From NCBI GenBank assembly GCA_964569575.1, contig CAZMTL010000004.1, positions 8,959 to 72,958 of the forward strand: a stretch of 64,000 bases of DNA, read 5' to 3'. The translations under genes and the position numbers were made by a program. Shown piece after piece: positions 7,958-60,394 of this stretch (positions are counted from its first letter, which is position 1; each line of letters starts with the position of its first letter). Below the pieces are notes generated by a model. That model worked only from the letters and a program-made list of their open reading frames with translations. It made no database searches and was not told the origin of the DNA. Source of the DNA: an uncultured Gammaproteobacteria bacterium. Lineage in GTDB: Bacteria > Patescibacteriota > Patescibacteriia > UBA9934.

Positions 7958-7998
7958 AAACACGAAACCCCCGCCACACACGTGTAGTGCGGCAGGGG
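7958..7998 (-). terminator. intrinsic terminator of GC island A
   Basis: On the minus strand CCCCUGCCGCAC-uacacgu-GUGUGGCGGGGG forms a 12-bp stem with two G:U pairs, followed by UUUCGUGUUU. Confidence 0.65.
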
Positions 7999-8003
7999 TC
8001 AGG

Positions 8004-8288
8004 CTACGAGTCAAACGTCTCGGTGCGAAGCTCCAACCCGTTCCAAACAGGCTGAAAGATCGCATCGTGATCATTTGATCCCTCGCGATAAACTCCAATC
8101 CGTTGACCTTCGGGAAGGATGATCAACAGCTGGCCCTTACGCGGATCGTAGCGAAGAACTACCAGGCCCTCCACTCCTGTCGACCGAATGATCGCTTCCA
8201 CCCGATCGAGCAGGTGAATGGCGGTACACTCGACACCGGCACGGAGTATGAAGCGGATCTCCCGCTGAACAGACTCTGTCAGACGCAC
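8004..8288 (-). CDS. hypothetical protein (94 aa), GC island A, second gene
   Basis: GTG start overlapping the upstream ORF stop by 10 nt (GAGTGCGTCTGA); GC-rich; no family recognised. Confidence 0.5.
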   Translation of the reverse strand: MRLTESVQREIRFILRAGVECTAIHLLDRVEAIIRSTGVEGLVVLRYDPRKGQLLIILPEGQRIGVYREGSNDHDAIFQPVWNGLELRTETFDS

Positions 8289-8545
8289 TCGCGGAACGTC
8301 GCCTCGTGCATCTGAAGGAACGACTCCAGCGGATCGGGGCTGACGGGCCGAATGGGCCGGCGCACCTTGGATCCATCGATCTCGACAACGATCTCGAACG
8401 ACTCGTCATCGAAGAACACCTCAGCCTCCAGACCGAGCTCGTAGAGAACCCGCTGGACGACGTCCTCGTCGAGCGAATCCTGCTCGAGCAGCTTCACGAT
8501 CACCACTCCAACATCGGCAGACGAACACACGCGCCTTGCGACCAT
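8279..8545 (-). CDS. acidic hypothetical protein (88 aa), GC island A, first gene
   Basis: AGGAGAGG SD four nt before ATG 8545; hand-counted GC3 71/88 (about 81%); no family recognised. Confidence 0.65.
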   Translation of the reverse strand: MVARRVCSSADVGVVIVKLLEQDSLDEDVVQRVLYELGLEAEVFFDDESFEIVVEIDGSKVRRPIRPVSPDPLESFLQMHEATFRECV

Positions 8546-8644
8546 GACCTCTCCTGAAAAACGGCATTATCGCCTCGAAAAAGACAAATATTCTCTTCTT
8601 CAAGCCAACCAAGAATACAAATGCACTCTTGCTAATAACGAAAG

Positions 8645-8673
8645 AACATAACAAAAAAATGGCCCTCTGTCAA
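8645..8673 (-). promoter_or_regulatory. sigma70-type promoter for island A
   Basis: Minus strand TTGACA-N17-TATGTT; the -35 lies in the loop of the weak hairpin that follows the pilD stop. Confidence 0.45.
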
Positions 8674-8686
8674 CCAAAAAGCCAAA

Positions 8687-9475
8687 TTACACTCCTAAAT
8701 ACCAACCAAGAATCCATTCTCCAAAAAACATCACGAACACAATAGCGCAGGCCATAAACGTTCCGAATGGTACATGGCTCGAAAGCGCACGCTTCTTACT
8801 AAGCACCAAAAGCAATCCACCAATCCCACCAAAAATATAACTAAACAACAACGCCAACAAACCTAACTGCGGGCCAAGCAAAAACCCCATCAACAACCCC
8901 ATACGCACATCCCCATCACCAACCCACTTCCCTTGCGAAATCAGGTACTGAACGGCAAAAAACGTTCCAATCAGCAATCCTCCCAACACAAACCACACAA
9001 TAGAAGCACCAAGCGCCAAATTGAATATCAAGATAGCCAAAATCGCCGGCACCGAAAACCGATCTAAAATAACCGAAAAACGATAATCATACACAAAGAT
9101 CACCATCAAAAACGACACCACCACAACATCTCGAACAAACAGCAAAATTAATTCGGACGAATCAACGAATTCAGGAATGCCAAACCCAAGCGCCACACGC
9201 AAAAACAACAACGTGGTCAAAATTCCCATTGCAAGCTCGACCGCCGGGTACTGCCACTCAATCACCGTCGCACACGAACGACATCGTCCTCGCAACGAAA
9301 TATAACTCACCACCGGAATCGTATCCAAAAAGGCAATCGGCTCTAAACACGTGTGACAGGTTGATTTCGGTTTTAACAACGCCGCATCTGCCTTTGTGCG
9401 AAAAATAACCACATTCAACAATCCGCCGATCGCAATCCCGAGTAATGCCGAAAGAATAATGCCAAGAACAATCAT
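8687..9475 (-). CDS. pilD: prepilin peptidase (A24 family)
   Basis: Cys-rich N-terminal CHTCLEPI...RGRCRSC, polytopic membrane protein, catalytic-Asp region GDGDVRMGLLMGFLLG; ATG 9475 abuts the pilin stop. Confidence 0.85.
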   Translation of the reverse strand: MIVLGIILSALLGIAIGGLLNVVIFRTKADAALLKPKSTCHTCLEPIAFLDTIPVVSYISLRGRCRSCATVIEWQYPAVELAMGILTTLLFLRVALGFGIPEFVDSSELILLFVRDVVVVSFLMVIFVYDYRFSVILDRFSVPAILAILIFNLALGASIVWFVLGGLLIGTFFAVQYLISQGKWVGDGDVRMGLLMGFLLGPQLGLLALLFSYIFGGIGGLLLVLSKKRALSSHVPFGTFMACAIVFVMFFGEWILGWYLGV

Positions 9476-9476
9476 A

Positions 9477-9983
9477 TTAATTCGAAAGTAGAATTTGTCG
9501 ACATGCGCCCGATTCAAAACCAGTCTCGGTTGCACAATTCAATCCCTTGCTCAAACCAAGAATCGCATTGTCCTTCTCGAGCTCGAACTGAATTCGATAC
9601 GTTTCCTCGTTCGCTGCGTAACAATACGCATTCGATGCTTCGGAACACTGCGAAAGCTCTCGCAGTCCGCGCTGAGGAGGCGAAAACACAACTTCCATAT
9701 ATGTTTGTTCAGCACGCGCACAAGCACCCACAAAGCCATCAACCCCCAAGCAGCGCGTCGAAGGCCATCCAAGCGCAATGTATTCCGGAGAAACAGGAAA
9801 TTCGCTCGTATCATGATAATACAGTTCTAACGCAACCTGCGTTTGACGCACATCCGAAAGCCGAACGGCGTCCCGCATCTGCGCTCGCGCACTCGACAAC
9901 ACCAACACAGTAATCAATCCCAAGATCGCAAGCACCGAAGTAGCGATCAACAATTCAATTCTTGTAATTCCTGACTGAGTCAT
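9477..9983 (-). CDS. type IV pilin-like protein
   Basis: Class III signal MTQSG/ITRIELLIATSVLAILGLI with Glu at +5; 168 aa. Confidence 0.75.
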   Translation of the reverse strand: MTQSGITRIELLIATSVLAILGLITVLVLSSARAQMRDAVRLSDVRQTQVALELYYHDTSEFPVSPEYIALGWPSTRCLGVDGFVGACARAEQTYMEVVFSPPQRGLRELSQCSEASNAYCYAANEETYRIQFELEKDNAILGLSKGLNCATETGFESGACRQILLSN

Positions 9984-9999
9984 ATGCTTTAGTATATCA

Positions 10000-10374: not shown

Positions 10375-10375
10375 A

Positions 10376-11506
10376 CTAGTTCTTTTCCGTCTTCTTGAGC
10401 GCAAGCCCGGCTGCGACAGAAAAACGCGGACCAACTTCGTCCAACACCGCACCCAATCCTTTCGGCACCGAAACGCGCGCCCACGGATCACCCAAATACA
10501 CATTCATATTTAATGCAGACGTCAAAATCTGATCAATGTGCGGCAAATGCGCAGAGCCACCCGTAATCACAATCTTCTCAACAGTTGAACCCTGATGAAA
10601 TTCTTGCGCAGCAAAAAGTTCGAGCGAATACTTCACCTCGTGCAAAATCGGCTGCATCGCTTCTTGCAACACCGGAGGAATCGCTGCCCCGTTCGTAAAT
10701 GCTAAATCTAATTTCGTTTGCTCAGCTTCTTCCAAAGACACCCCCATCTGCTTCGAAATCAAACGAGTAATATTTCCGCCTCCCGCCTTTACCGAACGAT
10801 GCAAGAAAGGAATACCTTCGTGCACGATCGTAATATTTGTCCGTTCAAATCCAATATCGACAAGTAGAATCTTTTCCTTCGCTTCACCTACAAGCGAACG
10901 AATCAACGCAAACGCCTCAGTCTCCAGTCCGGTTAAATTCAATTTCGACAACTTAAAAATATCAATATACTTCTGTACCAAGGTCTTCGGGGCACCCGAA
11001 ACCAACACGCGTACATGTTCCGTATCCGTTGTTCGCTGACCAGCAGCCGCCTTTGCATCTGATTTTGCCGATTCCTTTTTTGATGAAATCGGATCAAGAA
11101 TCTGTGAATCCAAAATCATGTCTTGAACCGGAATAGCAAGCAATTTTTTTACTTGGGACTCAATTAACGGCTTCAAATCATCCTTCTTTTCTTTTGGAGC
11201 GGGGATCGTAATAATCGCATGAAAAACCGAATGACTTGGAAGCGACACATTCGCCTGAAGCGATTTCATGCCAGAACGTCGGTGAAGTTCATCAATCAAA
11301 CTTGCCGCGTATTTTGGCTGATCAAGTAAAGATGTTTGTGTTTTATCGCTCTGAGATGTCCAGTCGGTATAACCATACGACAAAAGACGAGATCGTCCAG
11401 ATTCTCGCGCAATTTCGCATGCCTTTATTCCCCCTGCTCCAACATCGATTCCTACGACACCAACATCATTTGATGGCTTCTTTTTTAAGAAAGAAAATAG
11501 TCCCAT
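10376..11506 (-). CDS. pilM: type IV pilus assembly protein PilM (actin-like ATPase fold)
   Basis: 376 aa; N-terminal VVGIDVGAGGIKACE phosphate-1 motif and a later LLVDIGFERTNI motif. Confidence 0.8.
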   Translation of the reverse strand: MGLFSFLKKKPSNDVGVVGIDVGAGGIKACEIARESGRSRLLSYGYTDWTSQSDKTQTSLLDQPKYAASLIDELHRRSGMKSLQANVSLPSHSVFHAIITIPAPKEKKDDLKPLIESQVKKLLAIPVQDMILDSQILDPISSKKESAKSDAKAAAGQRTTDTEHVRVLVSGAPKTLVQKYIDIFKLSKLNLTGLETEAFALIRSLVGEAKEKILLVDIGFERTNITIVHEGIPFLHRSVKAGGGNITRLISKQMGVSLEEAEQTKLDLAFTNGAAIPPVLQEAMQPILHEVKYSLELFAAQEFHQGSTVEKIVITGGSAHLPHIDQILTSALNMNVYLGDPWARVSVPKGLGAVLDEVGPRFSVAAGLALKKTEKN

Positions 11507-11541
11507 GTAGAGATAGTTTTGCGTTCAGTATAACACATCGC

Positions 11542-11949: not shown

Positions 11950-11951
11950 AG

Positions 11952-13652
11952 TTATTCACTCAAACGTATATCTTCTATTTTACACTGCAATTCCTTTTTC
12001 CCATTCCATTCATTCACCCCAACGTCGAACACAATATCGACCTCGGTGTCTTTTTGTAACATGCCCGCCCAGTCCCCTAAACGAAATCCGATCATCTTCA
12101 TAATATCACCCACACCGGAATGCACCGAAAGACGCAAGTGTTTACCTTCTGCACCAATCGCATCCGCCGCAATCACAAGGGCTTTCTTTACCACAAACAA
12201 CGGCCTACGATTTCCTTCACCAAAGGGTTCAAATTTTGTAAGCAGGTTATAAAAATCCCAATTGATCTCGCCAAGTGCTACTTCACACTCGACCGTAAGG
12301 GTTCGTTGAAGCTGACGATTCTGAAAGAACTCCCGAGCAAACAACGAAACACGCTCTTCGAACACCTTTAACAAATCAAGACTCGCTATACTCACGCCGC
12401 ACGCCTGAGGGTGTCCACCGGCCTTAATAAAAATATCTCCGCACGATTTCATCGCCTCAACCAAGTGCAGACCCCCAACACTTCGCCCCGAACCAACATA
12501 GTGTTCACCAACTTTCGTAAAGACAAATGCAGGTACACCAAACTCGCTCACAATTTTCCCAGCCACCAAACCAACCACTCCGTGCAGCCAATCTTCATTC
12601 CAAATCACTTGAACAAATCCATTATTCTTCTGACGAGCTATGGCGGCCGCCTGCTGAAAAACCAAATCCGAAATTTTCTGTCGCTCTCTATTTAACTGTT
12701 CGAGCTCGGCAGCTCCTACCATCGCTGCAGCTTCATCTGTCGCAGCAAGCACTTCAAATGCCTTCATAGGTGAAGCGATCCGCCCAGCTGCATTAATTCG
12801 AGGACCAAGCTGAAATCCGATCGTCTCCGTGTCAATCTGTCCCATTTCGCCTCGAGCAAAATCCATAATCTTCCGAATGCCATGCCGTCGCGTTTTATTC
12901 AACACAAGCAAACCAAATTTCTCCAACACACGATTCTCACCCTTCAAGGGAACAACATCCGTTACGGTTGCGATTGCCACCAAATCCAAAAACCACTTCT
13001 CATACCCATCCGGAAATCGAGCGCCCCGTACAGCCGCCTCACGAATAAACGCACTCGCAAACTTAAACGCCACTCCCGTTCCACACAAATGCTTATTCGG
13101 ATACACCTCCCCCGGAACCAACGGATGAATAATCAACACATCTTGCGGCAACTTCTCTCCCAATTGGTGATGATCACACACAATCACATCCATGCCTAAT
13201 TCCTTGGCACGCCCAAGCGAAACATCATTCGAAATCCCACAATCCACCGTTACAATCAATCGAATACCCTCTTCCGCAAACCGCTCAATCGTATGAACCG
13301 CCACACCGTATCCATCCCGCTCACGATCGGGTAAAAAAACCGACACACGCGAGAAATCGTAATCCAATTGATCACACACATCTCTTAAAGCCGTGTACAA
13401 CAATGTTGATCCACTAATTCCATCCGCATCATAGTCTCCGTGAATCCGAATCATTTCACCCCGCTCAAGCGCCTGAAACAACCGATCAACTGCCGAACGC
13501 ATCTGCGTAAACAAAAAAGGATCATGTGTGCCATGCTCCCAATTTGGATTCAAAAATGCCTCTACTTCATCAACCAAAATCCCTCGGTTTCGTAATAGTA
13601 CGTCCGCAACAGATTCTTCTTTTCGCTCGCCAATATTCCACAAAAACGACAT
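11952..13652 (-). CDS. recJ: single-stranded-DNA-specific exonuclease RecJ
   Basis: DHH motifs HGDYDADGISG, VTVDCG, VCDHH and a DHHA1 GGHPQACG-like motif. Confidence 0.9.
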   Translation of the reverse strand: MSFLWNIGERKEESVADVLLRNRGILVDEVEAFLNPNWEHGTHDPFLFTQMRSAVDRLFQALERGEMIRIHGDYDADGISGSTLLYTALRDVCDQLDYDFSRVSVFLPDRERDGYGVAVHTIERFAEEGIRLIVTVDCGISNDVSLGRAKELGMDVIVCDHHQLGEKLPQDVLIIHPLVPGEVYPNKHLCGTGVAFKFASAFIREAAVRGARFPDGYEKWFLDLVAIATVTDVVPLKGENRVLEKFGLLVLNKTRRHGIRKIMDFARGEMGQIDTETIGFQLGPRINAAGRIASPMKAFEVLAATDEAAAMVGAAELEQLNRERQKISDLVFQQAAAIARQKNNGFVQVIWNEDWLHGVVGLVAGKIVSEFGVPAFVFTKVGEHYVGSGRSVGGLHLVEAMKSCGDIFIKAGGHPQACGVSIASLDLLKVFEERVSLFAREFFQNRQLQRTLTVECEVALGEINWDFYNLLTKFEPFGEGNRRPLFVVKKALVIAADAIGAEGKHLRLSVHSGVGDIMKMIGFRLGDWAGMLQKDTEVDIVFDVGVNEWNGKKELQCKIEDIRLSE

Positions 13653-13696
13653 GACATGATCTTAACATGCCCACGCCCGATCCTTAAGTGGATAAA

Positions 13697-15499
13697 CTAA
13701 CGCTTCAATACCTTCATGTACGCCTCGCTCGGAATCTTTACTTTTCCAACACCCATTTCCATCATTTTCTTCTTTCCTTTCTTCTGTTTGTCGAGCAATT
13801 TTCGTTTTCGTGTCACATCTCCTCCGTACAATTTTGCTGTCACATCTTTTCGAAGAGCCGAAATACGTTCTCCTGCAACAACCTTTCCACCAATCGTTGC
13901 CTGAAGTTTGATGACGAACTGCTGTTTTGGAATCGTTTCTTGAAGCGACTTCAAAATCTTTCGCCCAGTCTTTTCAGCCTCTTCGCGATACACAAACGTC
14001 GAAAGCGCTTCTACCATATCGTCGGCTACCATAATATCGAGCCGCACAACATCCGCCTCCCGATAATCTGTCACTTCATAGTTCATCGACGCGTACCCGC
14101 TCGTTACACTCTTCAACTTATCGTAAAAATCCACAATCACGCTTGCGAGTGGAATTTCGTAACGCAAAATCGCACGATCTTTGGAAAGAAATTCAGTCGT
14201 TGTATAAATCCCGGATCGCTCCTGAACAAACGTCATAATGGACCCAATATGTTCTGGCGGGCTAATAATATCAATTTTACACCAAGGTTCTTCGATATGA
14301 TCAACCAAAGACATGTCCGGCAAATCCAACGCTGTTCGAATCACCTCAGGCTCTGTCTTCCCATTTCGAAACACCTTGTACGCAACCGACGGAACCGTCA
14401 CAACAAGCTGAATATCAAATTCCCGCTCTAGTCGTTCTTTCAAAATCTCTAAATGCAGCATTCCTAAAAATCCTACTCGGAATCCGTACCCAAGCGCCGG
14501 TGAATGCTCAGGTTCAAACACAAGTGCTGCATCATTCAACTTCAAACGATCCATCGCATCTCGCAAGTTCGAATATTGATCCCCTTCCGCAGGAAAAATA
14601 CCAGCAAACACCATCGGCACCACTTCACGATACCCCGGCAAAGACTTCGCTTCGGTCGCTCCCGCCAAGGTCATTGTGTCACCCACGCGACAAGCAGAAA
14701 TATCTTTAAATCCTGTCACAACATACCCGATCTGACCCGTTTCTAATTCATCGAGCTCAAAAAACTTCGGTGCCAACGAACCAACTTCCAAAATTTCACT
14801 CTGCGCCTTTGAAGCAATCATCCGCAAAAGGTCACGCTTTTTCAACCGCCCGTCGAACACACGAACATACGCAACAACACCTTTATAGTCGTCGTAATAG
14901 GAATCAAACACCATCGCGCGCGGCGAAGTCACATCCGTCCCCTTTGGACACGAAATACGATCAATCACCGCATCAAGCAACGCAGGAACGCCATCGCCCG
15001 TCTTTCCAGAAACTGCCAATACTTCTTCCGGCTTACATCCAAGCAATGTCACCAATTCTTCCTTTCGAGCCGGAATATCTGCTGCAGGCAAATCAATTTT
15101 GTTCAATACAGGAATGATTTCCAAATCTTGATCAACCGCCAAATACAAATTAGCAATCGTCTGCGCCTGCACACCCTGAGTCGCATCCACCAAAAGAATA
15201 GCCCCTTCCACCGCAGCGAGCGAGCGCGAAACTTCGTAATTAAAATCGACGTGACCAGGAGTATCGATCAAGTTCAAGGTAAATTCCTTCCCGTCCTTCA
15301 CATGCTTCATGCGAACAGGAGCAAGCTTGATGGTAATTCCACGCTCTCGTTCGATATCCATCGAATCAAGCATCTGAGCCTTCATTTTGCGAGAATCAAC
15401 TGTCTTGGTTACTTCCAACAAACGATCTGCTAACGTTGATTTTCCATGATCAATGTGCGCGATAATACAAAAATTTCGAATCCGATCTTGAGGCGTCAT
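13697..15499 (-). CDS. lepA: translation elongation factor 4
   Basis: IRNFCIIAHIDHGKSTLADRLL, DTPGHVDF, NKIDL GTPase motifs plus the LepA C-terminal domain. Confidence 0.97.
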   Translation of the reverse strand: MTPQDRIRNFCIIAHIDHGKSTLADRLLEVTKTVDSRKMKAQMLDSMDIERERGITIKLAPVRMKHVKDGKEFTLNLIDTPGHVDFNYEVSRSLAAVEGAILLVDATQGVQAQTIANLYLAVDQDLEIIPVLNKIDLPAADIPARKEELVTLLGCKPEEVLAVSGKTGDGVPALLDAVIDRISCPKGTDVTSPRAMVFDSYYDDYKGVVAYVRVFDGRLKKRDLLRMIASKAQSEILEVGSLAPKFFELDELETGQIGYVVTGFKDISACRVGDTMTLAGATEAKSLPGYREVVPMVFAGIFPAEGDQYSNLRDAMDRLKLNDAALVFEPEHSPALGYGFRVGFLGMLHLEILKERLEREFDIQLVVTVPSVAYKVFRNGKTEPEVIRTALDLPDMSLVDHIEEPWCKIDIISPPEHIGSIMTFVQERSGIYTTTEFLSKDRAILRYEIPLASVIVDFYDKLKSVTSGYASMNYEVTDYREADVVRLDIMVADDMVEALSTFVYREEAEKTGRKILKSLQETIPKQQFVIKLQATIGGKVVAGERISALRKDVTAKLYGGDVTRKRKLLDKQKKGKKKMMEMGVGKVKIPSEAYMKVLKR

Positions 15500-18288: not shown

Positions 18289-18362
18289 TCCCGGATCGTC
18301 TAAAGGCAGGACTCCAGTTTCTGGCACTGGCAATCGGGGTTCGAATCCCTGTCCGGGAACCA
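18289..18362 (+). tRNA. tRNA-Gln (anticodon CUG), CCA encoded
   Basis: Hand-folded cloverleaf: acceptor TCCCGGA/TCCGGGA, D stem GTCT/GGAC, anticodon stem CCAGT/ACTGG with loop TTCTGGC, T arm CGGGG-TTCGAAT-CCCTG, then ACCA. Confidence 0.9.
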
Positions 18363-38457: not shown

Positions 38458-38756
38458 AGATGCTTGTAGAAAGTAGACCTCCCTACTCGCTAAAGATGAC
38501 TTTCGTCACCAACTAGTTAAAAAGAACAAGCGGTTGTTTCCCGTCAGAAAATCTGACAGCTGCCACAAATAATCGCACTACTCAGAGGCTTCTCCGAACA
38601 TCCGTCTTGCGACGGAAACTCTCGGAGAAGTCTCTCTCCAGCGATGACTCATGACAGGGGAAATTTCCCAAAACCACTTGTAAAAAAATACGACGAAAAA
38701 TACATTTCGTCTCAAGGGGCGTGACAGAAGCTAAATTTCCAAACAATCTGGAAATT

Positions 38757-38816
38757 CCCCACTTTCTGCCTCGCTGCTTCCACTTTACCCCACTTCCGCC
38801 CCACCAGCAACCACCC
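38757..38816 (-). promoter_or_regulatory. candidate MraZ operator: five phased (A)AAGTGG boxes
   Basis: CCAC on the plus strand at 38759, 38780, 38790, 38801 and 38811 (spacings 21, 10, 11, 10); minus-strand boxes read AAAGTGGGG, AAAGTGGAA, GAAGTGGGG, TGGTGGGG, GGGTGGTT. Confidence 0.5.
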
Positions 38817-38837
38817 TTCACCTAAACCTGTGGATAA

Positions 38838-38866
38838 TTGACCAAACAAGTTAAAAACGCTACATT
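38838..38866 (+). promoter_or_regulatory. sigma70-type promoter of the GC-rich Nudix-like gene
   Basis: TTGACC-N17-TACATT, about 20 nt upstream of the AAGGAGG SD. Confidence 0.45.
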
Positions 38867-38886
38867 TCGAACGCAAAGGAGGCGTG

Positions 38887-39462: not shown

Positions 39463-39490
39463 GGAACGCCACCTGGCGTTCCTTTCGTTT
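39463..39490 (+). terminator. intrinsic terminator
   Basis: GGAACGCC-acct-GGCGTTCC followed by TTTCGTTT. Confidence 0.65.
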
Positions 39491-39509: not shown

Positions 39510-40013
39510 ATGAAATCTATTGATCTATCAAACATCATTCTCTCGCTCGAAAAGTACAGCTCAGAAAACAACGGCCAAATCCCACGTGATTGGTTCGAAA
39601 AAATGCCCATCTACTTCCCTCAAGCGGCTATCGAGCTAGGGATCATTAAAGAGATCAATAACTCTCATCACATCTTCCTCGCTCAAAGGCCAGCAGACGA
39701 TCCATATTGGCCCAGCGAATGGCACCTTCCGGGCACAGTCCTCCGCCACACAGACACAGAAAAAACAATTTGGAAAAGACTACTTTCTGATGAAGTGGAT
39801 GGGATAATACAACCTTCCGAAGCAAAACTGATCGATACACACATTTCGAGCAAACAAGATCGCGAACGCGGCGCGTGCGTTCACTCAATCTATCTCGCAA
39901 AAACAAATAAAGACATCAAAAGTGGTAAATTCTTCCCGATCATCGATTTACCGAAAAATACAATCAAGCACCACCTGCCACTCATCGAAAAAATTAAAAA
40001 ATCCCTAAAATAA
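39510..40013 (+). CDS. Nudix-fold-like protein with degenerate Nudix box, AT-rich copy
   Basis: ATG 39510 lies inside track ORF 38985..40013; MKSIDLSN...WHLPGTVLRHTDTEKTIWKRLLSDEVDG; paralog of 38887..39444. Confidence 0.7.
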   Translation: MKSIDLSNIILSLEKYSSENNGQIPRDWFEKMPIYFPQAAIELGIIKEINNSHHIFLAQRPADDPYWPSEWHLPGTVLRHTDTEKTIWKRLLSDEVDGIIQPSEAKLIDTHISSKQDRERGACVHSIYLAKTNKDIKSGKFFPIIDLPKNTIKHHLPLIEKIKKSLK

Positions 40014-40047
40014 CAACGAGGCCCCCGAAAGGACCTCAGCGTCTACT

Positions 40048-40425
40048 CTAGTGGTAGAACTCACGATGCTCGTGCACTGGTAGATCGAACACGAACGGAT
40101 CGTTCACGAACGACACTTCGATCTGACTTCGCAGATCACGAAGAGAACGTTCGAAGACTTCGATTCCACCAATCTGCTCAAGTAGCTCTTGAACATCTGG
40201 CAGTTGCCAACCCGGGAAATCTTCAGTCCAGTCGTCATTCGCTACGGCTGCGTAAAAGCACCACACCGATTCACGCGTACCGAACAGATGATACTCCCTA
40301 CCCTCCAACTCCCCCGTAGCCACGCTCTCGAGACTGAAATACACCAGTTCGAGCAGGTCGAGCATGCTCTTCTCGTGTTCATTCAGCAGCTCCACGAAAT
40401 GCAGAACAATGTGAACCAGGATCAC
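40048..40425 (-). CDS. hypothetical protein (about 125 aa), GC island C
   Basis: GGAGG five nt before GTG 40425 (the track start at 40437 is TTG); acidic, GC-rich; terminator-like hairpin GAGGUCC/GGGGCCUC downstream on the minus strand. Confidence 0.5.
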   Translation of the reverse strand: MILVHIVLHFVELLNEHEKSMLDLLELVYFSLESVATGELEGREYHLFGTRESVWCFYAAVANDDWTEDFPGWQLPDVQELLEQIGGIEVFERSLRDLRSQIEVSFVNDPFVFDLPVHEHREFYH

Positions 40426-40448
40426 GCATTCCTCCAAGCGACAAAAGA

Positions 40449-40477
40449 ACTCTATAAAATTTAAGGTGAATCGTCAA
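40449..40477 (-). promoter_or_regulatory. candidate promoter for island C
   Basis: Minus strand TTGACG-N17-TAGAGT (or N15-TATAGA), starting 3 nt after the uvrC stop. Confidence 0.35.
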
Positions 40478-41944: not shown

Positions 41945-44473
41945 CTACTTCACATTCTTCTTCCTCAAATAAGGCTTCAAATACTGTCCCGTATAACTCT
42001 TAGCCGAACGAGCAATATCCTCCGGAGTCCCTTCTGCAACAACCATTCCTCCACCAACTCCACCCTCTGGACCCATGTCGATTAACCAGTCAGCCGTTTT
42101 GATCACATCCAAATTGTGTTCAATGATCAAAACCGTATTTCCTTTCTCGACCAAACGATGCAACACCTCAAGTAATGTCTTAATATCTTCGAAGTGAAGT
42201 CCTGTCGTCGGCTCGTCGAGTAAATAAAGTGTTCGGCCCGTATTTCGCTTCGCAAGTTCAGAAGCCAACTTCACACGCTGAGCCTCACCACCCGAAAGCG
42301 TATTTGCAGACTGACCTAGCTTCAAATAACCAAGCCCAACGCTCACGAGTGTTACCAACTTATCGTGAACAGAAGGAATGTCCTTAAAAAACTCCGTTGC
42401 TTCCTCGATCGTCATCTCCAAAACTTGAAAAATATTCTTTTCTTTAAATTCAACCTCCAACGTTTCACGATTAAATCGTCGCCCTTTACACACATCACAC
42501 TGCACATACACCGTTGGCAAGAAATGCATTTCGATCGCAATTTCCCCATGCCCCTCACAATGATCACAACGTCCACCCGCCACGTTAAAGCTAAAACGAC
42601 CAGTTTTATATCCACGGAACTTCGCTTCATCCGTCGTAGCAAACAAATCACGAATCGGCGTCCAAGCTCCGGTATAAGTAGCTGGGTTAGATCTAGACGT
42701 TCGTCCAATCGGAGATTGATCCATCAAAATTGCCTTATCGATGTACTCAATGCCCAAAACAGATTTATGAGCACCAGGCTTCCCTTTGCTGCCGTACAAC
42801 TTTTTCGCAATCGCTTTGTAAGTCACTTCCAACATCAAGGTCGACTTCCCGCTTCCAGAAACACCTGTAATACAAACCATGCGTCGAAGCGGAATATCAA
42901 CATCTACATTCTTCAAATTGTTCTCGGTAGCTCCCCGAACCTTAATCGCATCCTTCCCAACCTTTCTGCGCTCGGTAGGAACCGGAATAACGCGATCACC
43001 CCGCAGATACGCCGCGGTCAGCGATTTCTTATCTTCAAAAATCTCGGGCGTTGGTCCGGCAGCAACAATCTCCCCTCCGTGCACACCAGCACTCGGTCCA
43101 ACCTCGACCATGTAATCCGATCGCCGAATGGTATCTTCGTCATGCTCTACAACCAACACGGTATTCCCCAAATCTCGCAACGATTCAAGCGTATTAATCA
43201 ACTGATCGTTATCACGTTGATGCAGACCAATCGTTGGTTCATCAAGTACATACAAAGCACCAACCAAACGCGAACCAATTTGCGAAGCTAAACGAATACG
43301 TTGCGCTTCACCCCCAGAAAGCGTCCCGGCCTTACGATCGAGCGTTAAATAATGCAACCCAACATCCAACATAAACGTCAATCGGCTTTCGATCTCTTTC
43401 AATACGGTTCCAGCAATTTCCAACCCACGCTCGTCTAACGCGATATGTAGAATGAAATCTGCGGCTTCCGAAATCGTTTTCGCTGTGTACTGAACAATAT
43501 TTTCACCACCAATAAGCACACTCAACGCCTCCTTGCGCAATCGCTTCCCATCACACGCGGGACAAATTTCTTCAGAGAAAAGCTCGAGCGTTCCTAACCC
43601 AGTACACGCTTCACAAGCTCCATAGGGACTATTGAACGAAAAAAGTCGTGGCTCGATTTCTGGAAACGAAAATCCACAATTTACACAACTAAATTTAGTA
43701 GAAAACAACCGCTCTTCCCCTGACGCGTACACCACATTCACCAAATCCTGTCCGCGATCAACCGCATTTTCGAGCGCTTCATTCAAGCGTTGACGCGTGT
43801 CCTTGTCCGGATCCTTTAGGCTAACCTGTGGAATAACATCGATAACCACTTCGATCGTATGCTGCTTATAGCGAGAAAGCTTAATTTCTTCACTCAAACG
43901 ATGCATCTTGCCATCTACCCGCACCTTTGCGAATCCTGAATTATACAAATCATACAATAACTGATAATAATTCCCCTTTCGACCACGAACAACCGGAGCC
44001 AAAATTTGAATTTCGCCAGAAGGAATCGCCTTTTCCTTTGCATTTTGCTTCATCAACAAATCAGAAATTTCATCAATCGTTAAACGCTCAATTCTCGATT
44101 TACAATCAGGACAATGCGCCTCACCAACACGCGCGTAAAGAACACGAAGGTAATCGTAAATTTCCGTCACCGTCGCCACAGTTGAACGCGGGTTTCGAGA
44201 ATGTGCTTTTTGATCAATCGAAATAGCTGGTGACAACCCTTCGATTTCGTCTACATCCGGCTTTTGCATCTGACCCAAAAATTGCCGTGCATAAGCAGAA
44301 AGCGATTCGATATAACGACGCTGCCCTTCCGCAAAAATCGTATCAAAAGCGAGGGAAGATTTTCCGCTTCCCGACACGCCAGTAAAACAAATAAGTTGAT
44401 TTCGAGGCAATTCGAGTGAAACATTTTTTAAGTTATGCTCACGCGCACCCTTGATTGTAATTTTTTCTTTCAT
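41945..44473 (-). CDS. uvrA: excinuclease ABC subunit A (842 aa)
   Basis: Starts [17 protein letters not shown]; two ABC ATPase modules ([18 protein letters not shown]) and LSGGEAQR signatures; the 142 upstream codons of the track ORF are read-through of GC-rich DNA. Confidence 0.95.
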
Positions 44474-44480
44474 ATATAAT
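44451..44480 (+). promoter_or_regulatory. candidate sigma70 promoter facing into GC island D (antisense to the uvrA start)
   Basis: TTGATT-N18-TATAAT on the plus strand; it overlaps the uvrA start codon region, so could be fortuitous AT-rich sequence. Confidence 0.4.
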
Positions 44481-45191
44481 TGTTGAGATGTTGATAGCGT
44501 TCTCGTGGTGAGATCGGCGTCGCATCGGCGAAAGGAGGCCCCCATGTCTCGTGGAGCAGTGAACGCTGGACGAACGCGTCCAGCCGAGACCACGCGTCGC
44601 CCGGCAATGCAGGTGCATTGCCGGGACCGATCGGGCGCACGACGCGCTTCGAACGGAGGTGAGCAGTCTCGATCCGTCGTGCCCGGCGTGACCACCTCCG
44701 GAAACGGAGACGGTCGAAGCCCGCGAGCGCGCGAACAGCGCTGCGGTGGTGGTGGGCTCGCGCCCATCCGAGGAGCTTCACCCGACGAAGAGTCCAGGTG
44801 CCCGGGGGCGTCGGAACGGGCGAACCCGGGCACGCCAACGCAGACACGAAGGCCAGCGTCCGGCCGAGGAGGTGAGGAGTCTCGATCCATCACGCCCAAC
44901 TACGCGAGCGATTCCGCAACCGGAAACGCTCGCGAACAGCTGTACTGTGGCAACGGGGGACTTTCCTCCACACCAGGATCTGGACACGACTACCGTGCAC
45001 CGGGCTTCGGAGGCAAGAAGCACATCAAGGACCCTCGAGGAAAGAAGCGCGGCGACAACCCGCGAGGAATTCCGCATCTCCCTCGACGAATTCGACTGCC
45101 CACGCACCCGGGCATGCAATGGACTCCGGCCAAGAAGCCTTAGCCGAACACAATTGACGTACAGACGAAACCCGCCAGGCGATCGTCATCT
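44481..45191. other. GC island D: hairpin-dense GC-rich element, coding status and strand unresolved
   Basis: 43/60 G+C in line 44581-44640; many perfect stems (see findings); all six frames are open over long stretches; no protein-like translation. Confidence 0.6.
44544..45143 (+). CDS. candidate R/G/S/P-rich basic repeat protein (199 aa), island D
   Basis: AAAGGAGG-N5-ATG, open to TAG 45141, terminator 50 nt downstream. Against it: low-complexity translation, and codon-position GC of about 72/73/58% in the first 60 codons. Confidence 0.3.
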
Positions 45192-45221
45192 GCCCTGCAA
45201 AAGCAGGGCCTTTCATTTTTT
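45192..45221 (+). terminator. intrinsic terminator (plus-strand sense), overlapping the uvrB stop
   Basis: GCCCTGC-aaaa-GCAGGGC followed by CTTTCATTTTTT; on the minus strand the same hairpin has no U-run. Confidence 0.55.
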
Positions 45222-47270: not shown

Positions 47271-47435
47271 AACAAAATTGCCCGACTCCACGCTCTACTA
47301 CAAAGTAGATGACGCTTTTGGGATCGGGATCGTTCGTAAATTGTAAAACCAGCATAGCACACTTAAAGAAGAAAACAAAAACGCGCCCCTTCTTGCAAAG
47401 TGAGCGCGCAGCATGCAGTGAAGCATGAATTCCTC

Positions 47436-47645
47436 CTATTCGTCTTCGGTAGTGTGGCGACGATTACCACGAGTGGTGCGGACGTATCCGCGTTTAGAGT
47501 GATACCCGCCGCCATTACGACGGCGAAGTGCCACCAGATCGGTACGCCGACCCTGCGGAAGCACGACAACGATCCGAAGATCATCCTCGCGCTTCTGTTC
47601 CTTGGTCCTACCAACAGGCTTCGAAGCCTTCCGCTTCTTCGCCAT
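47436..47645 (-). CDS. hyper-basic small protein (69 aa), GC island E, second gene
   Basis: AGGAGGTGAGAG directly before ATG 47645; MAKKRKASKPVGRTKEQKRE...RRRNGGGYHSKRGYVRTTRGNRRH; GC-rich stem plus U-run downstream. Confidence 0.6.
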   Translation of the reverse strand: MAKKRKASKPVGRTKEQKREDDLRIVVVLPQGRRTDLVALRRRNGGGYHSKRGYVRTTRGNRRHTTEDE

Positions 47646-47662
47646 CTCTCACCTCCTGGTGC

Positions 47663-47872
47663 TCACAACCACGTGAGCACGTACATCTTCACGCGATGAA
47701 ATGCGCTCGAGCGCACCACCGAGTGGACCACCTCCGGAAGCTGAGGCTCCCAGTACAGGGAGTTGAGCTTGCCAGTGAGCTCGACCGTCCCTTCCAGGAA
47801 CGACCGAACCCGACCGGGCTTGAGATCGAACTTCTCGAGAATGAATCCCGAGATCAAACCCCATAGAATCAT
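47663..47872 (-). CDS. small protein with hydrophobic N-terminus (69 aa), GC island E, first gene
   Basis: GGAGGG four nt before ATG 47872; MILWGLISGFILEKF...; its stop is 15 nt before the next gene's SD. Confidence 0.55.
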   Translation of the reverse strand: MILWGLISGFILEKFDLKPGRVRSFLEGTVELTGKLNSLYWEPQLPEVVHSVVRSSAFHRVKMYVLTWL

Positions 47873-47895
47873 GATCCCTCCAATCAAGACACACC

Positions 47896-47924
47896 ACAGT
47901 ATACCAAAAAAGAGGCTTTGTCAA
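47896..47924 (-). promoter_or_regulatory. sigma70-type promoter for island E
   Basis: Minus strand TTGACA-N15-TATACT with TGG upstream (extended -10), or N17-TACTGT; the -35 sits inside terminator hairpin AGAGG..CCTCT of the upstream gene. Confidence 0.45.
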
Positions 47925-47951
47925 CCTCTTTTCTTCTCTACCACCTACACT

Positions 47952-49505: not shown

Positions 49506-49579
49506 TGGTTCCCAGACAGGGATTCGAACCCCGATTCTCAGGACCAAAACCTGATGTCCTGCCCTTAGACGATCTGGGA
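49506..49579 (-). tRNA. tRNA-Gln (anticodon UUG), CCA encoded
   Basis: Hand-folded: acceptor TCCCAGA/TCTGGGA, anticodon stem TCAGG/CCTGA with loop TTTTGGT, T arm CGGGG-TTCGAAT-CCCTG, ACCA; followed by a CCCACCAAGC..GCTTGGTGGG terminator hairpin. Confidence 0.9.
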
Positions 49580-53839: not shown

Positions 53840-53870
53840 AAACAAAGACCCCGTACACGTGTACGAGGTC
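53838..53870 (-). terminator. intrinsic terminator of GC island F
   Basis: Minus strand GACCUCGUAC..GUACGGGGUC stem with one G:U pair, followed by UUUGUUUUU. Confidence 0.55.
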
Positions 53871-53895
53871 CGAGTGACGCCTCAGGTTGAAGCGA

Positions 53896-54708: not shown

Positions 54709-54737
54709 ATGCTACAGGAAAAAGAAAACTTGGTCAA
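54709..54737 (-). promoter_or_regulatory. sigma70-type promoter for island F
   Basis: Minus strand TTGACC-N17-TAGCAT; the -35 lies within terminator hairpin CTTGGT..ACCAAG of the upstream MGMT-like gene. Confidence 0.45.
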
Positions 54738-55505: not shown

Positions 55506-56027
55506 TTAACCTTTCTTCTCACTAATTGCTCCAAGAACCGTTACGAGACCTCGCAAATTACCTGCAAGAACGTTGACGAATCCAGAAACAGGGGCGTTGA
55601 TTGAACCAACCAACTTCGCATAGAGCTCTTCTCGGCTAGGAAGAAGTGCCAACTGATTCACTTCTTGTGAACCAATCTGACGACCTTCTAAAAATCCCGA
55701 TACCAACGAAACGGCTTCGTTTTCTTTGGTAAGCTCTTTCAAAAGCTTCGCTGCACCAACATCATCTCCAAACGCCACGGCAGTAAGGATTGATCCCTTC
55801 AACGCTGAAGTGTCTAGATCAAATCCCGCTTCCTTCGCGGCAATTTTGAGAAGTGTCTTTTTTGCAACGAATACCTTGATGTCCTTTTCTTCTGCCTTCG
55901 TACGCAGCGCATCTGCCTGCGCCATACCGAATCCAGAGATTGAAGAGAACGCGGCAGACTTCATGTTTTTGAAGTCCTGAGCAATTCGCTCAACGATCAC
56001 TTCTTTTTGTGGACGAGTTTTCGCCAT
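55506..56027 (-). CDS. rplJ: 50S ribosomal protein L10
   Basis: [15 protein letters not shown]..., immediately upstream of rplL. Confidence 0.93.
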
Positions 56028-56201
56028 ACTACATTGAATTAACATGCAGATGAAAGAGGAAGGCATCTCCACTTCCAGTCCGCTGAATAAAAAACAACGG
56101 CTGAAAAGCCGTAGAAAATGAAGCGAAATCGCTAGAAATATGCCTCGATGAGATTTATGCGTTCGCTACTCACTTTCTACGGCTCTTCTGTTGTTGGACA
56201 T
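56028..56201 (-). promoter_or_regulatory. rplJ leader with mutually exclusive antiterminator/terminator helices
   Basis: On the minus strand, AGCCGUAGAAA (56184-56174) can pair with UUUCUACGGCU (56117-56107). Alternatively CGGCU (56111-56107) pairs with AGCCG (56102-56098), followed by UUGUUUUUUAUU. Confidence 0.45.
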
Positions 56202-57529: not shown

Positions 57530-58996
57530 ATGAATAACGAAATGCGCCACATCCCGCCACATAACCTGGAAGCTGAAGAATCACTTCTTGGGGCGATTTT
57601 AATTGAACCGGAAGCTTTGCTAAAAGTGGTCGATATTCTTCAACCAGAAGACTTCTACAAAGATGCTTACAAAACCATCTTCGAAGGAATGCTGGAACTT
57701 TCCGAAAAACACGAACCAGTCGATCTTTTAACTCTCGGAAACAAATTAGAAGAACGTGACGTCCTAAAACGCATCGGCGGACGATCGGCGCTCGTTGAGC
57801 TCACAAACCGCGTAACCACATCGGCCCACATTCAAAACTACGCGAACATTATTAGTAAAAAAGCCACTTTACGACGACTAATTCGTGCAGCAGGCGAAAT
57901 TACCGAACTCGGATTCGACGAAAACGAAGATGTAGATCTACTGATCGACGAAGCAGAGCGCAAACTGTTCAACGTTTCGCAAAAAAATAACAACAATAAC
58001 TTCGTACCGATGCGTTCAATTTTGGCAAATGCCTTCGAACGCATCGACGAACTTCACCAAAGCCAAGGAAAACTAAAAGGCGTCCCATCTGGCTTCACCG
58101 GTGTCGACAATCTACTCGGAGGCCTGCAGCGTACGGATTTAATTATTCTTGCCGCCCGACCTTCGGTTGGAAAGACTTCTTTTTCCCTCGACATCATTCG
58201 CTCGGTAGCGGTAAAGCACAAACAGCCTGTTGGATACTTCTCGCTGGAAATGGCAAAAGAACAAATTGTCGACCGCATGCTTTGTGCCGAAGCAAACGTC
58301 GACCTTTGGAAATTACGAACCGGACGTCTTTCCGACAAAGACGACGACTTCCCGCGAATCGGTGAAGCTCTCGGACGCCTTTCGGAAGCTCCAATTTTTA
58401 TCGATGACTCCTCTTCGGCAAACATCATGACGATTCGTTCAAAGGCACGGCGATTAAAAGCAGAACACGGCCTTTCCTTAATCGTAATCGACTACTTGCA
58501 GCTAATGGATGCTCGCAAACACAGCGACAACCGTGTACAAGAAGTGGCCGAAATCAGTCGTGGATTAAAGCAAATCGCAAAAGAATTAGACGTACCAGTC
58601 CTTGCGCTTGCACAGCTCTCGCGTGCCGTTGAACAAACCAAACCAGCCATTCCAAAACTCTCCCACCTTCGTGACTCGGGTTCCATCGAGCAAGACGCCG
58701 ATATCGTGATGTTCCTCTATCGAAAAGGCGCCGACCGAAACTACATGCCCGAAGAATTAACACCCGAAGAACAAAACTCAGGCGAAGTTCACATCGCAAA
58801 ACACCGTAACGGACCAACGGGAATGGTAAAACTCTACTGGGACAAACCTCGAGCCAGCTTCAAAAATCTGGAACAGCACCGCGCACCAGCGATGCCAAGT
58901 CAAAACTCGGGACCACAAACATCAGGCCCTCACAACATCGGCCTTCCCCCTGGAGTCCCTCCAAAACAACCAGCAACAGCCAGTGAACACGGTTGA
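57530..58996 (+). CDS. dnaB: replicative DNA helicase
   Basis: IPPHNLEAEESLLGAIL N-terminal domain; Walker A ARPSVGKTSF; IVIDYLQLM. Confidence 0.95.
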   Translation: MNNEMRHIPPHNLEAEESLLGAILIEPEALLKVVDILQPEDFYKDAYKTIFEGMLELSEKHEPVDLLTLGNKLEERDVLKRIGGRSALVELTNRVTTSAHIQNYANIISKKATLRRLIRAAGEITELGFDENEDVDLLIDEAERKLFNVSQKNNNNNFVPMRSILANAFERIDELHQSQGKLKGVPSGFTGVDNLLGGLQRTDLIILAARPSVGKTSFSLDIIRSVAVKHKQPVGYFSLEMAKEQIVDRMLCAEANVDLWKLRTGRLSDKDDDFPRIGEALGRLSEAPIFIDDSSSANIMTIRSKARRLKAEHGLSLIVIDYLQLMDARKHSDNRVQEVAEISRGLKQIAKELDVPVLALAQLSRAVEQTKPAIPKLSHLRDSGSIEQDADIVMFLYRKGADRNYMPEELTPEEQNSGEVHIAKHRNGPTGMVKLYWDKPRASFKNLEQHRAPAMPSQNSGPQTSGPHNIGLPPGVPPKQPATASEHG

Positions 58997-59047
58997 TAAA
59001 AACCACAAAAGCAAGTATTTTATCTACATTAATCTTTACAAAATTGT

Positions 59048-59344
59048 ATGTTCAACAAACTGAAACAAATTAAAGACATCCGAAATCAAGCAAAAGAAAT
59101 GCAAAGCATGCTTGCTGACGTAATGGTGGTTGGTCAATCATCTGGATCGAAAGTGATGATTACACTCGACGGAAACCAGAAAGTACAGGGTGTAAAAATT
59201 GAAGGCGAACACGACAACGCAACGCTTGAATCAGCTATCAAAGACGCCTTCAACGATGCAACAAAAAAGCTTCAAAAAGAAATGGCAATGAAAATGAAAG
59301 ACATGGGAGGACTAGAAGCACTTAAAGACATGTTGGGTGGCTAA
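59048..59344 (+). CDS. ybaB: nucleoid-associated protein YbaB/EbfC
   Basis: 98 aa, located upstream of recR as in many bacteria; typical ...VKIEGEHD...LESAIKDAFNDA pattern. Confidence 0.9.
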   Translation: MFNKLKQIKDIRNQAKEMQSMLADVMVVGQSSGSKVMITLDGNQKVQGVKIEGEHDNATLESAIKDAFNDATKKLQKEMAMKMKDMGGLEALKDMLGG

Positions 59345-59353
59345 AACCCGCGC

Positions 59354-59953
59354 ATGCGAAAATTTCCAGCTCCAATCCATAACGCTGTCGCAGCACTTTC
59401 GAAACTACCGGGAGTCGGTCCAAAAACCGCTCTCCGGTATGTTTTTACATTGCTACGATTTAGTCCAAACGATCTAGAAACAATCGCTCGCGCCATCGCA
59501 GCCCTTCGCTATATCCAAGTCTGCAACATCTGTCTCACCTATTCCGAACAACAAATCTGCGGCATTTGTAGTGACGAAAAACGTCAAAACACCATTCTGT
59601 GCATCGTATCCGAAGCACGAGACATTTCAACCATCGAAGCAACAGATGCATTCAAAGGGAAATACTTCGTACTCGGTGGCGTACTCAATCCCGTAGAAGG
59701 AAAGACGCCAGAACAGCTGAACATAAAAAAGCTCATCGAGCGACTAGAAATCCAACCCGATATCCAAGAACTGATCTTCGCCTTCTCACCAGACATCCAC
59801 GGCGAAACGACCATCATGTTCCTTTCTCGGCGACTAAAATATCTACAAAAGAAAATGACCCGTCTTGCCCGCGGCCTTCCAATGGGCGCAGACATCGAGT
59901 ACGCAGACGAAGTAACCCTAGGCGACGCCCTACTCGGCAGACGCGAGATGTAA
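59354..59953 (+). CDS. recR: recombination protein RecR
   Basis: HhH LPGVGPKTA, Zn finger CNICLTYSEQQICGIC, Toprim domain. Confidence 0.93.
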   Translation: MRKFPAPIHNAVAALSKLPGVGPKTALRYVFTLLRFSPNDLETIARAIAALRYIQVCNICLTYSEQQICGICSDEKRQNTILCIVSEARDISTIEATDAFKGKYFVLGGVLNPVEGKTPEQLNIKKLIERLEIQPDIQELIFAFSPDIHGETTIMFLSRRLKYLQKKMTRLARGLPMGADIEYADEVTLGDALLGRREM

Positions 59954-59983
59954 AAAAATAAGCGCCCGATCACTCGAGCGCAG
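59954..59983 (-). terminator. intrinsic terminator of GC island G
   Basis: Minus strand GCGCUCGA-guga-UCGGGCGC (one G:U pair) followed by UUAUUUUUU; on the plus strand the same position is a C:A mismatch. Confidence 0.55.
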
Positions 59984-60394
59984 CTACGCAGACCATCGAA
60001 GTACCTCCCCACCTCGAAATACTTTCAGGTCCACAGAATGCCGATGCCGGTCTACCAATCGCAGAGCAAAGCTTCGACCTTTTGGGAAGAAACGAAGTCT
60101 ACTGAGGTACACGGCTGTAAACACGATCTCGAAGTGAGAGCGGTTCACAGCAACCGGAGTCGCACTCCAGCCTTCTTCGTCAGAATCCCGAAACGAACGC
60201 AAATGCTGCGAGTATGCCGCAACAAATCGCCGAAACTGTTCCTGTGAAGAAAGCACCGCAGCGTATTCCCACCTGTCCCCCGGGACAAGTACCGAGATCG
60301 GCAACCGAAGCAGCGCACGCCTCGTAGTCGCCAAGATCATCTTCACATCACCTGAACGCAAGCATCCTCCAACACAATGGTCTACCTCTAGCAT
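59984..60394 (-). CDS. hypothetical protein (118-136 aa), GC island G
   Basis: ATG 60394, or AGGTGA-N6-ATG at 60340; GC-rich; no family recognised. Confidence 0.5.
   Translation of the reverse strand: MLEVDHCVGGCLRSGDVKMILATTRRALLRLPISVLVPGDRWEYAAVLSSQEQFRRFVAAYSQHLRSFRDSDEEGWSATPVAVNRSHFEIVFTAVYLSRLRFFPKGRSFALRLVDRHRHSVDLKVFRGGEVLRWSA

Follow-up and report, generated by a model that had tools for sequence, protein, structure and literature searches.

Seven GC-rich islands between conserved genes

The window analysed here, a stretch of 64,000 nucleotides from contig CAZMTL010000004.1 (positions 8,959 to 72,958; assembly GCA_964569575.1), carries seven short islands rich in guanine plus cytosine (GC), designated A to G, that lie between conserved genes (Table 1). 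An earlier, sequence-only reading had described them as GC-rich units in a low-GC backbone, and on this point it was correct: the GC content is 55.0% in A, 56.7% in B, 50.6% in C, 61.6% in D, 55.7% in E, 55.6% in F and 53.5% in G, as compared to 46.0% for the window and 45.3% after removal of the islands. The contrast holds for A, B, D, E and F; in C and G it is weak. The hand counts given with that reading (43/60, 35/60 and 24/60 for single lines of sequence, and 71/88 for the GC content at third codon positions, GC3, of open reading frame (ORF) A1) were reproduced identically in a recount. All backbone ORFs fall within 41-51% GC, with a codon-position GC of about 0.56/0.37/0.44, and most genes of the window are on the minus strand. 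Atypical composition is a hallmark of genomic islands, and the excess over the host is 5-16 GC points here.

The UvrB protein of the window finds its best matches in metagenome-assembled genomes labelled Uhrbacteria, Magasanikbacteria and other Parcubacteria. As these best matches reach only 59-67% identity, the window is placed, by sequence comparison, in a genome of a poorly sampled lineage of the Candidate Phyla Radiation (CPR, Patescibacteria). Scans of genome and metagenome collections yielded no relative closer than 67% by UvrB, with none above 66% in JGI metagenomes, and the closer relatives used below (UvrB 77%) were reached solely via the homologues of island B.

The islands are a coherent class. 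When dinucleotide frequencies are normalised for GC content, the pooled islands lie at a distance delta* of 154 from the backbone, while random backbone sets yield 35±12 (z=9.7), and for each single island the distance to the other islands (53-105) is smaller than the distance to the backbone (110-216). This signature extends to contig L163 of a related genome, whose islands are at a distance of 64 to those of the window and of 113 to their own backbone, with the two backbones 53 apart. Upon dinucleotide shuffling the coding islands also fold in excess, with z down to -6.9. Excess RNA folding was considered as a further hallmark of the islands and rejected, as it disappears under a codon-shuffle null or is equalled in the backbone, as in recR and mraZ. 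Note also that GGCC occurs 70 times in the backbone where 119 occurrences are expected (observed/expected 0.59), and 14 times in the islands against 14 expected (p ~0.05, with a small island count). The shortage in the backbone could be an avoidance of restriction sites that is not common to the islands.

Table 1. Features of the seven islands and of the paralogue adjoining island B (SD, Shine-Dalgarno sequence).
Feature	Position	Strand	Remarks
A, promoter-like site	8645..8673	-	TTGACA-17-TATGTT with TG; -35 box inside loop of upstream terminator hairpin 8660-8684
A1, acidic orphan ORF, 88 aa	8279..8545	-	SD AGGAGAGG-N3-ATG; codon-position GC 0.71/0.32/0.81
A2, orphan ORF, 94 aa	8004..8288	-	10-nt overlap with A1 stop
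A, terminator-like hairpin	7966..8000	-	14 pairs
B, promoter-like site	38838..38866	+	TTGACC-17-TACATT, divergent from mraZ
B, divergent Nudix-fold protein, 186 aa	38884..39444	+	ATG 38887 after AAAGGAGG; GC 58%, GC3 0.70
B, terminator hairpin	39463..39482	+	
Low-GC paralogue of B	39511..40013	+	43% GC, GC3 0.47, Lys-rich; 37% identity to B; natural control, not an island
C, promoter-like site	40449..40477	-	TTGACG-17-TAGAGT
C, acidic orphan ORF, 129 aa (start uncertain)	40048..40437	-	GC 52%, codon-position GC 0.67/0.27/0.60
C, terminator hairpin	40017..40038	-	
D, promoter-like site	44451..44480	+	TTGATT-18-TATAAT, over uvrA start codon (44471-44473, - strand)
D, open frame	44531..45143	+	AAAGGAGG-N5-ATG (44544), then 200 open codons; product rich in Arg, Gly, Ser, Pro
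D, two diverged tandem units, ~175 nt	44569-44749 and 44784-44950		
D, hairpin	45192..45209	+	directly behind uvrB stop; T-run on + strand only
E, promoter	47899..47927	-	TTGACA-N15-(TG)GTATACT; -35 box inside loop of upstream terminator hairpin; read directly from sequence
E2b, 69-aa ORF	47663..47872	-	hydrophobic N-terminus; SD GGAGGG; GC3 0.77
E1, very basic 69-aa ORF	47436..47645	-	SD AGGAGGTGA
E, weak terminator	47372..47409	-	stem CGCGC/GCGCG, then T-run
F, promoter-like site	54709..54737	-	TTGACC-17-TAGCAT
F, strict orphan, 261 aa	53896..54681	-	open frame exceeds shuffled sequence (P=0.004)
F, terminator hairpin	53846..53871	-	
G, promoter-like site	60399..60428	-	TTGTTA-18-TATATT; ATG 60394 would give leaderless mRNA
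G, Arg-rich orphan ORF, 136 aa	59984..60394	-	weak coding signal, weak GC contrast (54%)
G, terminator hairpin	59962..59981	-	

Island B and its family

Only the product of island B belongs to a recognisable family, as the sequence-only reading had stated; Pfam, NCBIfam, PADLOC and PHROGs returned nothing for the other islands. Its match to Pfam NUDIX is weak but above threshold (25.9 bits, gathering score 21.1). The Nudix box GX5EX7REUXEEXGU is not intact in the alignment (G93-TTLYPKDS-E102-ETMWK-R108-LLASE113-LG), and the REUxEE core is absent from all four family members aligned, which show RLLxxE instead. B thus resembles the Nudix hydrolases in passing the gathering score, but differs from them in its degenerate box and in a family limited to one small CPR clade.

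Among 5.8 billion protein clusters B has two homologues only, P0003 (51% identity) and P0004 (44%), and both occupy the slot of B itself, in the order mraZ, B homologue (plus strand), uvrC-uvrA-uvrB. P0003 is found on contigs L163 and L164, where UvrA and UvrB are 85% and 77% identical to those of the window and the backbone has about 50% GC; P0004 is found on contigs L165-167 and on a 617-kb JGI contig, with UvrC at 74% identity and a backbone of about 42% GC. All three orthologues are GC-rich relative to their own genomes by 10-16 points: P0003, B and P0004 have 66.5, 58 and 52% GC on backbones of about 50, 45 and 42%, and GC3 values of 0.94, 0.70 and 0.58 on backbones of about 0.53, 0.45 and 0.33. 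In spite of its extreme GC3, P0003 has no homologue outside its clade in the same 5.8 billion clusters. The proteins diverge fast: at 44-51%, their identity between genomes is lower than the flanking genes show, and for the window and L163 it is 51% in B as against 76% in UvrC. At the four-fold degenerate sites of uvrA in the same two genomes, identical third bases make up 0.29, with 0.26 expected at saturation. Because these sites are saturated, any ancestral compositional signal should be erased, and the GC excess of B is then more readily understood as maintained than as a relic that has yet to ameliorate.

Directly behind B and on the same strand lies a paralogue of backbone composition. 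A neighbor-joining tree of five taxa, calculated without support values, has the topology (L002,(low-GC paralogue,(P0004,(B,P0003)))), so that the low-GC paralogue is the sister of the GC-rich trio and the homologue from L002, likewise of backbone composition, falls outside. As the two paralogues are adjacent and on the same strand but unlike in long-term composition, a regional mutational cause is excluded. To judge from tree and slot, B is a vertically inherited GC-rich copy; at the sequence level its orthology, the conservation of its slot and its GC offset are established in three genomes with saturated synonymous sites.

The spacer 38458-38883 between the divergent mraZ and B genes, 430 bp, holds no convincing ORF; its counterparts are L163 9321-10000, where a 58-aa ORF is called, and L165 1888-2205. 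Two copies of AAAACCGTTTTCAGGC(T/C)AG are found in L163 within 10535-10852, the spacer that separates the B orthologue from the ORF in slot C. Between uvrC and uvrA, which are 130 bp apart in the window, L163 has three extra genes (12663-14970) that encode a 110-aa ORF (56% GC), a 271-aa double NUDIX protein and a Peptidase_M23 protein.

Coding potential and expression signals

Six of the islands look protein-coding, namely A and E with two ORFs each, and B, C, F and G. The codon-position GC of A2, B, C, F and G shows the usual pattern, moved upward. A leave-one-out codon model trained on the other islands selected the right frame for A1, A2, C, E2b, E1 and F and weakly for G, but failed for B. 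Open frames exceeded those of dinucleotide shuffles in F (P=0.004), B (P=0.012) and C (P=0.046). Codon periodicity is very strong in A1, which is also predicted as a gene on the Logan contig L162. The first ORF of island E had originally been placed at 47649-47924; this position did not hold, the coding frame being 47663-47887 with a probable ATG at 47872, and 17 nt separate E2b from E1. Single-sequence AlphaFold2 models of A2 (alpha-alpha-beta3, predicted local distance difference test score, pLDDT, of 58) and F (all-alpha, pLDDT 49) were too weak for a fold assignment, which was dropped in both cases; the A2 model gave no PDB fold match at E<1.

The islands had been credited with terminators of their own and, where one could be found, with a promoter, and such sites can indeed be read from the sequence at the borders of all seven, but consensus sites are not commoner here than in shuffled sequence and are therefore suggestive only. 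Note that the promoter scan took spacers of 16-18 nt, so that the E site with its 15-nt spacer was outside the scan. In two terminator hairpins, 8660-8684 (-) and ~47905-47935 (-), the loop holds the -35 box TTGACA of the next promoter, forming a compact terminator-promoter module.

The claim of a strong Shine-Dalgarno sequence (SD) for every island was borne out in part: it is present at the likely starts of A1, B, D, E2b, E1 and F, but not of C, G and A2. This still amounts to 6 of 9 island ORFs, compared with at most 5 of 55 backbone genes when any start within the first 40 codons is allowed (p=4e-4). P0003, P0004 and the slot-C ORF of L163 are likewise led by an SD while their neighbours are not, and a similar contrast was found in L163 and L165. 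The island units are presumably expressed. The backbone genes mostly go without an SD, and several look leaderless, such as ligA, whose ATG at 7661 follows the end of a TATAAT by 9 nt.

Island D

Island D, a 740-nt stretch of 62% GC, behaves differently. It does possess a promoter-like site, an SD-ATG and a terminator of its own on the plus strand, but every coding test failed. Its codon-position GC is flat (0.67/0.67/0.63), and no 120-nt window shows periodicity. With the codon model, five of the six frames scored negative and the sixth about zero, with -0.196 for the open frame on the plus strand. All six frames are open over 93-217 codons, and shuffled sequence yields frames as long as the longest (P=0.2). 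The two tandem units differ at four sites in their best-conserved block, all of them at codon positions 1 and 2.

Compared with composition-matched shuffles, D folds with z-scores of -4.0 on the minus and -4.8 on the plus strand, and by inspection one hairpin shows two compensatory changes between the tandem units. Neither strand is favoured by G-U counts or local folding. Searches of D and its repeat units against all 168 fetched loci (nhmmer) and of the D motif against IMG/VR gave no match. A 12-nt identity to the CR-I motif of RNase P RNA (GGAGGAAAGUCC) is found at ~44965-44980 on the minus strand within D; RNase P RNA was rejected as an identity for D, as even lax filters gave no match to an RNase P model.

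D is best seen as a unit, either non-coding or proto-genic, that was inserted between uvrB and uvrA. In relatives these two genes abut, so that the minus strand of D would have to be read through for the expression of uvrA, unless a new promoter arose. As the hairpin behind uvrB has its T-run on the plus strand only, a transcript of D should stop there while read-through from uvrB to uvrA passes.

Homologues and occupancy of the slots

For protein F, a search of 5.8 billion clusters and a full phmmer search of 1.84 billion representative proteins returned the protein itself only. A1, A2, C, G, E2b, E1 and F had no match in phage records, plasmid records or the PDB, nor had F and C in IMG/VR; note that the orphan status of A1, A2, C, G, E1 and E2b refers to the phage, plasmid and PDB collections (for C also IMG/VR). 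No homologue from a donor lineage was found for any island protein, with F and B searched in the large cluster database and the smaller ORFs in the phage, plasmid and PDB collections. Rfam gave nothing in any island at gathering or lax thresholds, and blastn and tblastx of island against island detected no common sequence. The islands had been noted to show no signs of integrases, tRNA attachment or flanking repeats; consistent with this, the border scans revealed no direct or inverted repeats and no common border motifs, the domain search no integrase in the ORF map of the window, and the tRNA scan no tRNA at an island border. The window does contain two tRNA-Gln genes, 18289-18362 (+) and 49506-49579 (-), with anticodons CTG and TTG, neither of which adjoins an island. 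The proposal that addiction-type modules retain the islands found no support in Pfam, NCBIfam, PADLOC or PHROGs, nor in a fold match of the A2 model.

The slots themselves recur. In L163, slot C holds a 103-aa ORF of 60.6% GC with a perfect SD, slot D a 425-bp stretch of 56.9% GC and slot E a GC-rich ORF of 61%. None of the three can be aligned with its counterpart in the window, and Smith-Waterman comparisons with shuffling detected no similarity of the slot ORFs to the island proteins of the window (z<3). Slot D nevertheless has the same plan in both genomes: a -10 box on the plus strand at the uvrA end, an SD-ATG, an open frame with flat GC (in L163 54 aa, codon-position GC 0.60/0.61/0.72) and a terminator on the plus strand only behind uvrB. 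This pattern fits orthologues that have diverged past recognition as well as a repeated refilling of the same slots.

In the fetched uvrB neighbourhoods, ORFs at least 8 GC points above their backbone number 13/396 in CPR and 2/680 in non-CPR loci (p=9e-5), a roughly ten-fold difference, while AT-rich outliers show the opposite trend. None of the GC-rich outliers has a homologue in another fetched locus. A global test for orphans being GC-rich across all loci showed no effect, 'orphan' in that test mostly meaning a position outside the common uvr neighbourhood, so that only the comparison of GC-rich outliers is informative. GC-rich orphan ORFs recur next to uvrB in many CPR contigs, among them L009 (9449-9721), L102 (12132-12959), L091 (12264-12896), L141 (12057-12461) and L161 (8716-9833), and no known Rfam family was found among the GC-rich orphans of the eight loci checked. 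In published surveys, bacterial orphans matched the GC content of their genome, with phage-derived or phage-related ones lower (PMC11293555), and GC-rich orphans are therefore unusual.

Possible origin and maintenance of the islands

Starting from the observed contrasts in composition and SD usage, the common signature and the orphan status, we tentatively favour, at somewhat less than an even chance, the reading that the islands are resident, lineage-restricted and fast-evolving accessory mini-genes led by an SD, whose GC-richness is maintained at the nucleotide level. An Uhrbacteria- or Magasanikbacteria-like CPR bacterium would then carry six protein-coding units, and D without a coding signature, in recurrent intergenic slots between conserved genes. 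GC-richness would be an old trait of this gene class, affecting all three codon positions and including a shift from Lys to Arg, and a nucleotide-level force, possibly selection on RNA or GC-biased fixation, would hold it against a backbone leaning towards AT. Because GC-rich 5' regions fold, the island genes would need a strong SD, while backbone genes start without one. Islands A, C, D, E, F and G would presumably share the history of B.

Several observations weigh against this reading. The argument for maintained GC stems from one family with three orthologues and a five-taxon tree without support values. Part of the dinucleotide signature may follow from the high GC3 of coding DNA, and under the codon-shuffle null the coding islands show no surplus of RNA structure compared with backbone genes, so that selection for RNA structure is without direct support. 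The absence of known orthologues for A, C, E, F and G may mirror poor sampling, with the nearest UvrB at 77%. GGCC is avoided in the backbone and, weakly, not in the islands (p ~0.05), as would fit foreign DNA. Finally, L165 and the JGI contig have nothing in slots C and D, and L001 and L002 have an empty slot D; gains or losses therefore do occur.

These last points lead to the main rival account, which we regard as possible but improbable, namely that permissive slots are refilled time and again with GC-rich, SD-led mini-genes, for example by DNA uptake and recombination in the conserved flanks. The mini-genes would come from a pool confined to the clade and residing on plasmids, phages or other mobile elements that have escaped sampling, and the islands would carry the composition of this pool and not that of the host. 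Such turnover would explain why the signature is common to islands and genomes after normalisation for GC, why the same slots hold unrelated sequence in the window and L163 or are empty elsewhere, and why SD usage is alien to the backbone, and the weak lack of GGCC avoidance would agree with it. The B family, however, tracks the species order in a single slot, its identity across genomes is below that of the flanking genes and not above it, no copy of an island gene turned up elsewhere in the collections searched (5.8 billion clusters, IMG/VR, phage and plasmid records, each for its searched ORFs), and repeats, recombinase genes and common border motifs are missing. The related idea of an undescribed class of mini-cassettes, raised by the sequence-only reading, is strengthened somewhat by a signature and an SD syndrome that recur across genomes. 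Integron-type cassettes differ, as the islands have no common sequence, no border repeats and no integrase in the ORF map.

Acquired islands of atypical composition ameliorate over time in the model of Lawrence and Ochman, and the islands resemble such acquisitions in GC content, dinucleotide signature and skew. These properties, and the empty slot D in L001, L002 and the JGI contig, would be accounted for if the islands had been imported recently and piecemeal, with amelioration still to come, from a donor of high GC content (an episymbiont's host, for instance). This reading is nevertheless unlikely. Orthologues of like composition in the same slot, the finding that was to speak against import, were looked for in relatives and found for B, which is orthologous and GC-elevated in three genomes past synonymous saturation. 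Absence from the same site in relatives, a further mark of genomic islands, gives a mixed picture, since B, the one traceable island, is present. P0003 with its GC3 of 0.94 has no homologue beyond the clade, F has none at all and no donor was found; promoters are of host type, and borders coincide with host terminators. Mobility genes, tRNA sites and repeats, the usual company of acquired islands, are lacking, and B is vertical and not ameliorated. Recent import is thus contradicted for B and unsupported for the rest. An artefact of assembly or binning, with chimeric foreign reads, is more improbable by far. Sharp steps in composition and the origin of the sequence from a metagenome-assembled genome would fit it, but Logan contigs from SRR15237806, an independent assembly, span the borders of A, D/uvrA and F at 100% identity, which argues against a chimeric assembly; moreover, borders coincide with gene ends and host-type promoters, and a like syndrome is found in other assemblies from other samples.

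That the islands are mainly structured non-coding RNAs, with accidental ORFs in stop-poor GC-rich sequence, is also unlikely as a general explanation, and would apply to D and perhaps G only. D shows neither periodicity nor codon-model support nor an unusually long open frame, its folding energies (z -4.0 to -4.8) and the hairpin with compensatory changes point to structure, and structured RNAs are known to be over-represented in long intergenic regions of high GC content (PMC6429828, PMC8723152). With 740 nt, 62% GC, a non-coding appearance and excess predicted folding in a genome of 45% GC, D resembles the regions of the GC-IGR/DIMPL approach in these studies; unlike them it has no Rfam family or homologue, but an SD-ATG and a long open frame. 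For the other six islands, which are coding, the codon model chose the correct frames of A1, A2, C, E2b, E1 and F, the periodicity of A1 is very strong, B encodes a protein with a Nudix fold, open frames reach significant length in F and B, folding is no better than in backbone genes under the codon-shuffle null, and no Rfam match was obtained.

As short, homologue-free units of unassigned function that lie between conserved genes and vary among relatives, the islands are akin to ORFan genes and genomic islets. They differ from these in their 5-16 additional GC points, a common signature, their SD use and, for one family, an offset that persists past synonymous saturation. The two-gene units A (88 and 94 aa, overlapping) and E (69 and 69 aa), with their own promoter and terminator, recall type II toxin-antitoxin systems, but Pfam, NCBIfam and PADLOC returned no toxin or antitoxin family for them, and no fold was matched by the A2 model.

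If resident maintenance is the correct reading, it is of consequence, as atypical composition is routinely taken as a sign of recent horizontal transfer, whereas the B family has retained a strong GC surplus at one and the same slot in three genomes with saturated synonymous sites, while a paralogue of backbone composition adjoins it. More speculatively, and we consider this doubtful at present, CPR genomes may hold a second compositional gene class, made up of small, fast-evolving SD-led mini-genes and proto-genes in fixed slots whose GC is held 10-16 points up past synonymous saturation. This would imply either a GC-favouring force specific to the gene class, such as RNA selection or biased conversion, or an undescribed private mobile gene pool. 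Were the phenomenon general for the CPR, resident genes would be mistaken for foreign ones by island detectors based on composition and an unrecognised force would shape part of these reduced genomes, and the expressed-looking orphans and the non-coding unit within the uvrB-uvrA operon would be candidates for symbiosis-related or regulatory functions.

Neighbouring features

Two further features of the window deserve mention. Upstream of rplJ (55506-56072), where a leader of ribosomal protein L10 is to be expected, the stretch 56079-56200 (-) matches the L10 leader below threshold (31.9 bits, gathering score 44). A low-GC hydrophobic ORF of 59 aa (7719-7898, minus strand) lies between island A and ligA; it is also called as a gene on the Logan contig L162 and has a near-perfect promoter at 7926-7954 (TTGACA-17-TATTAT) and its own terminator at 7693-7722.

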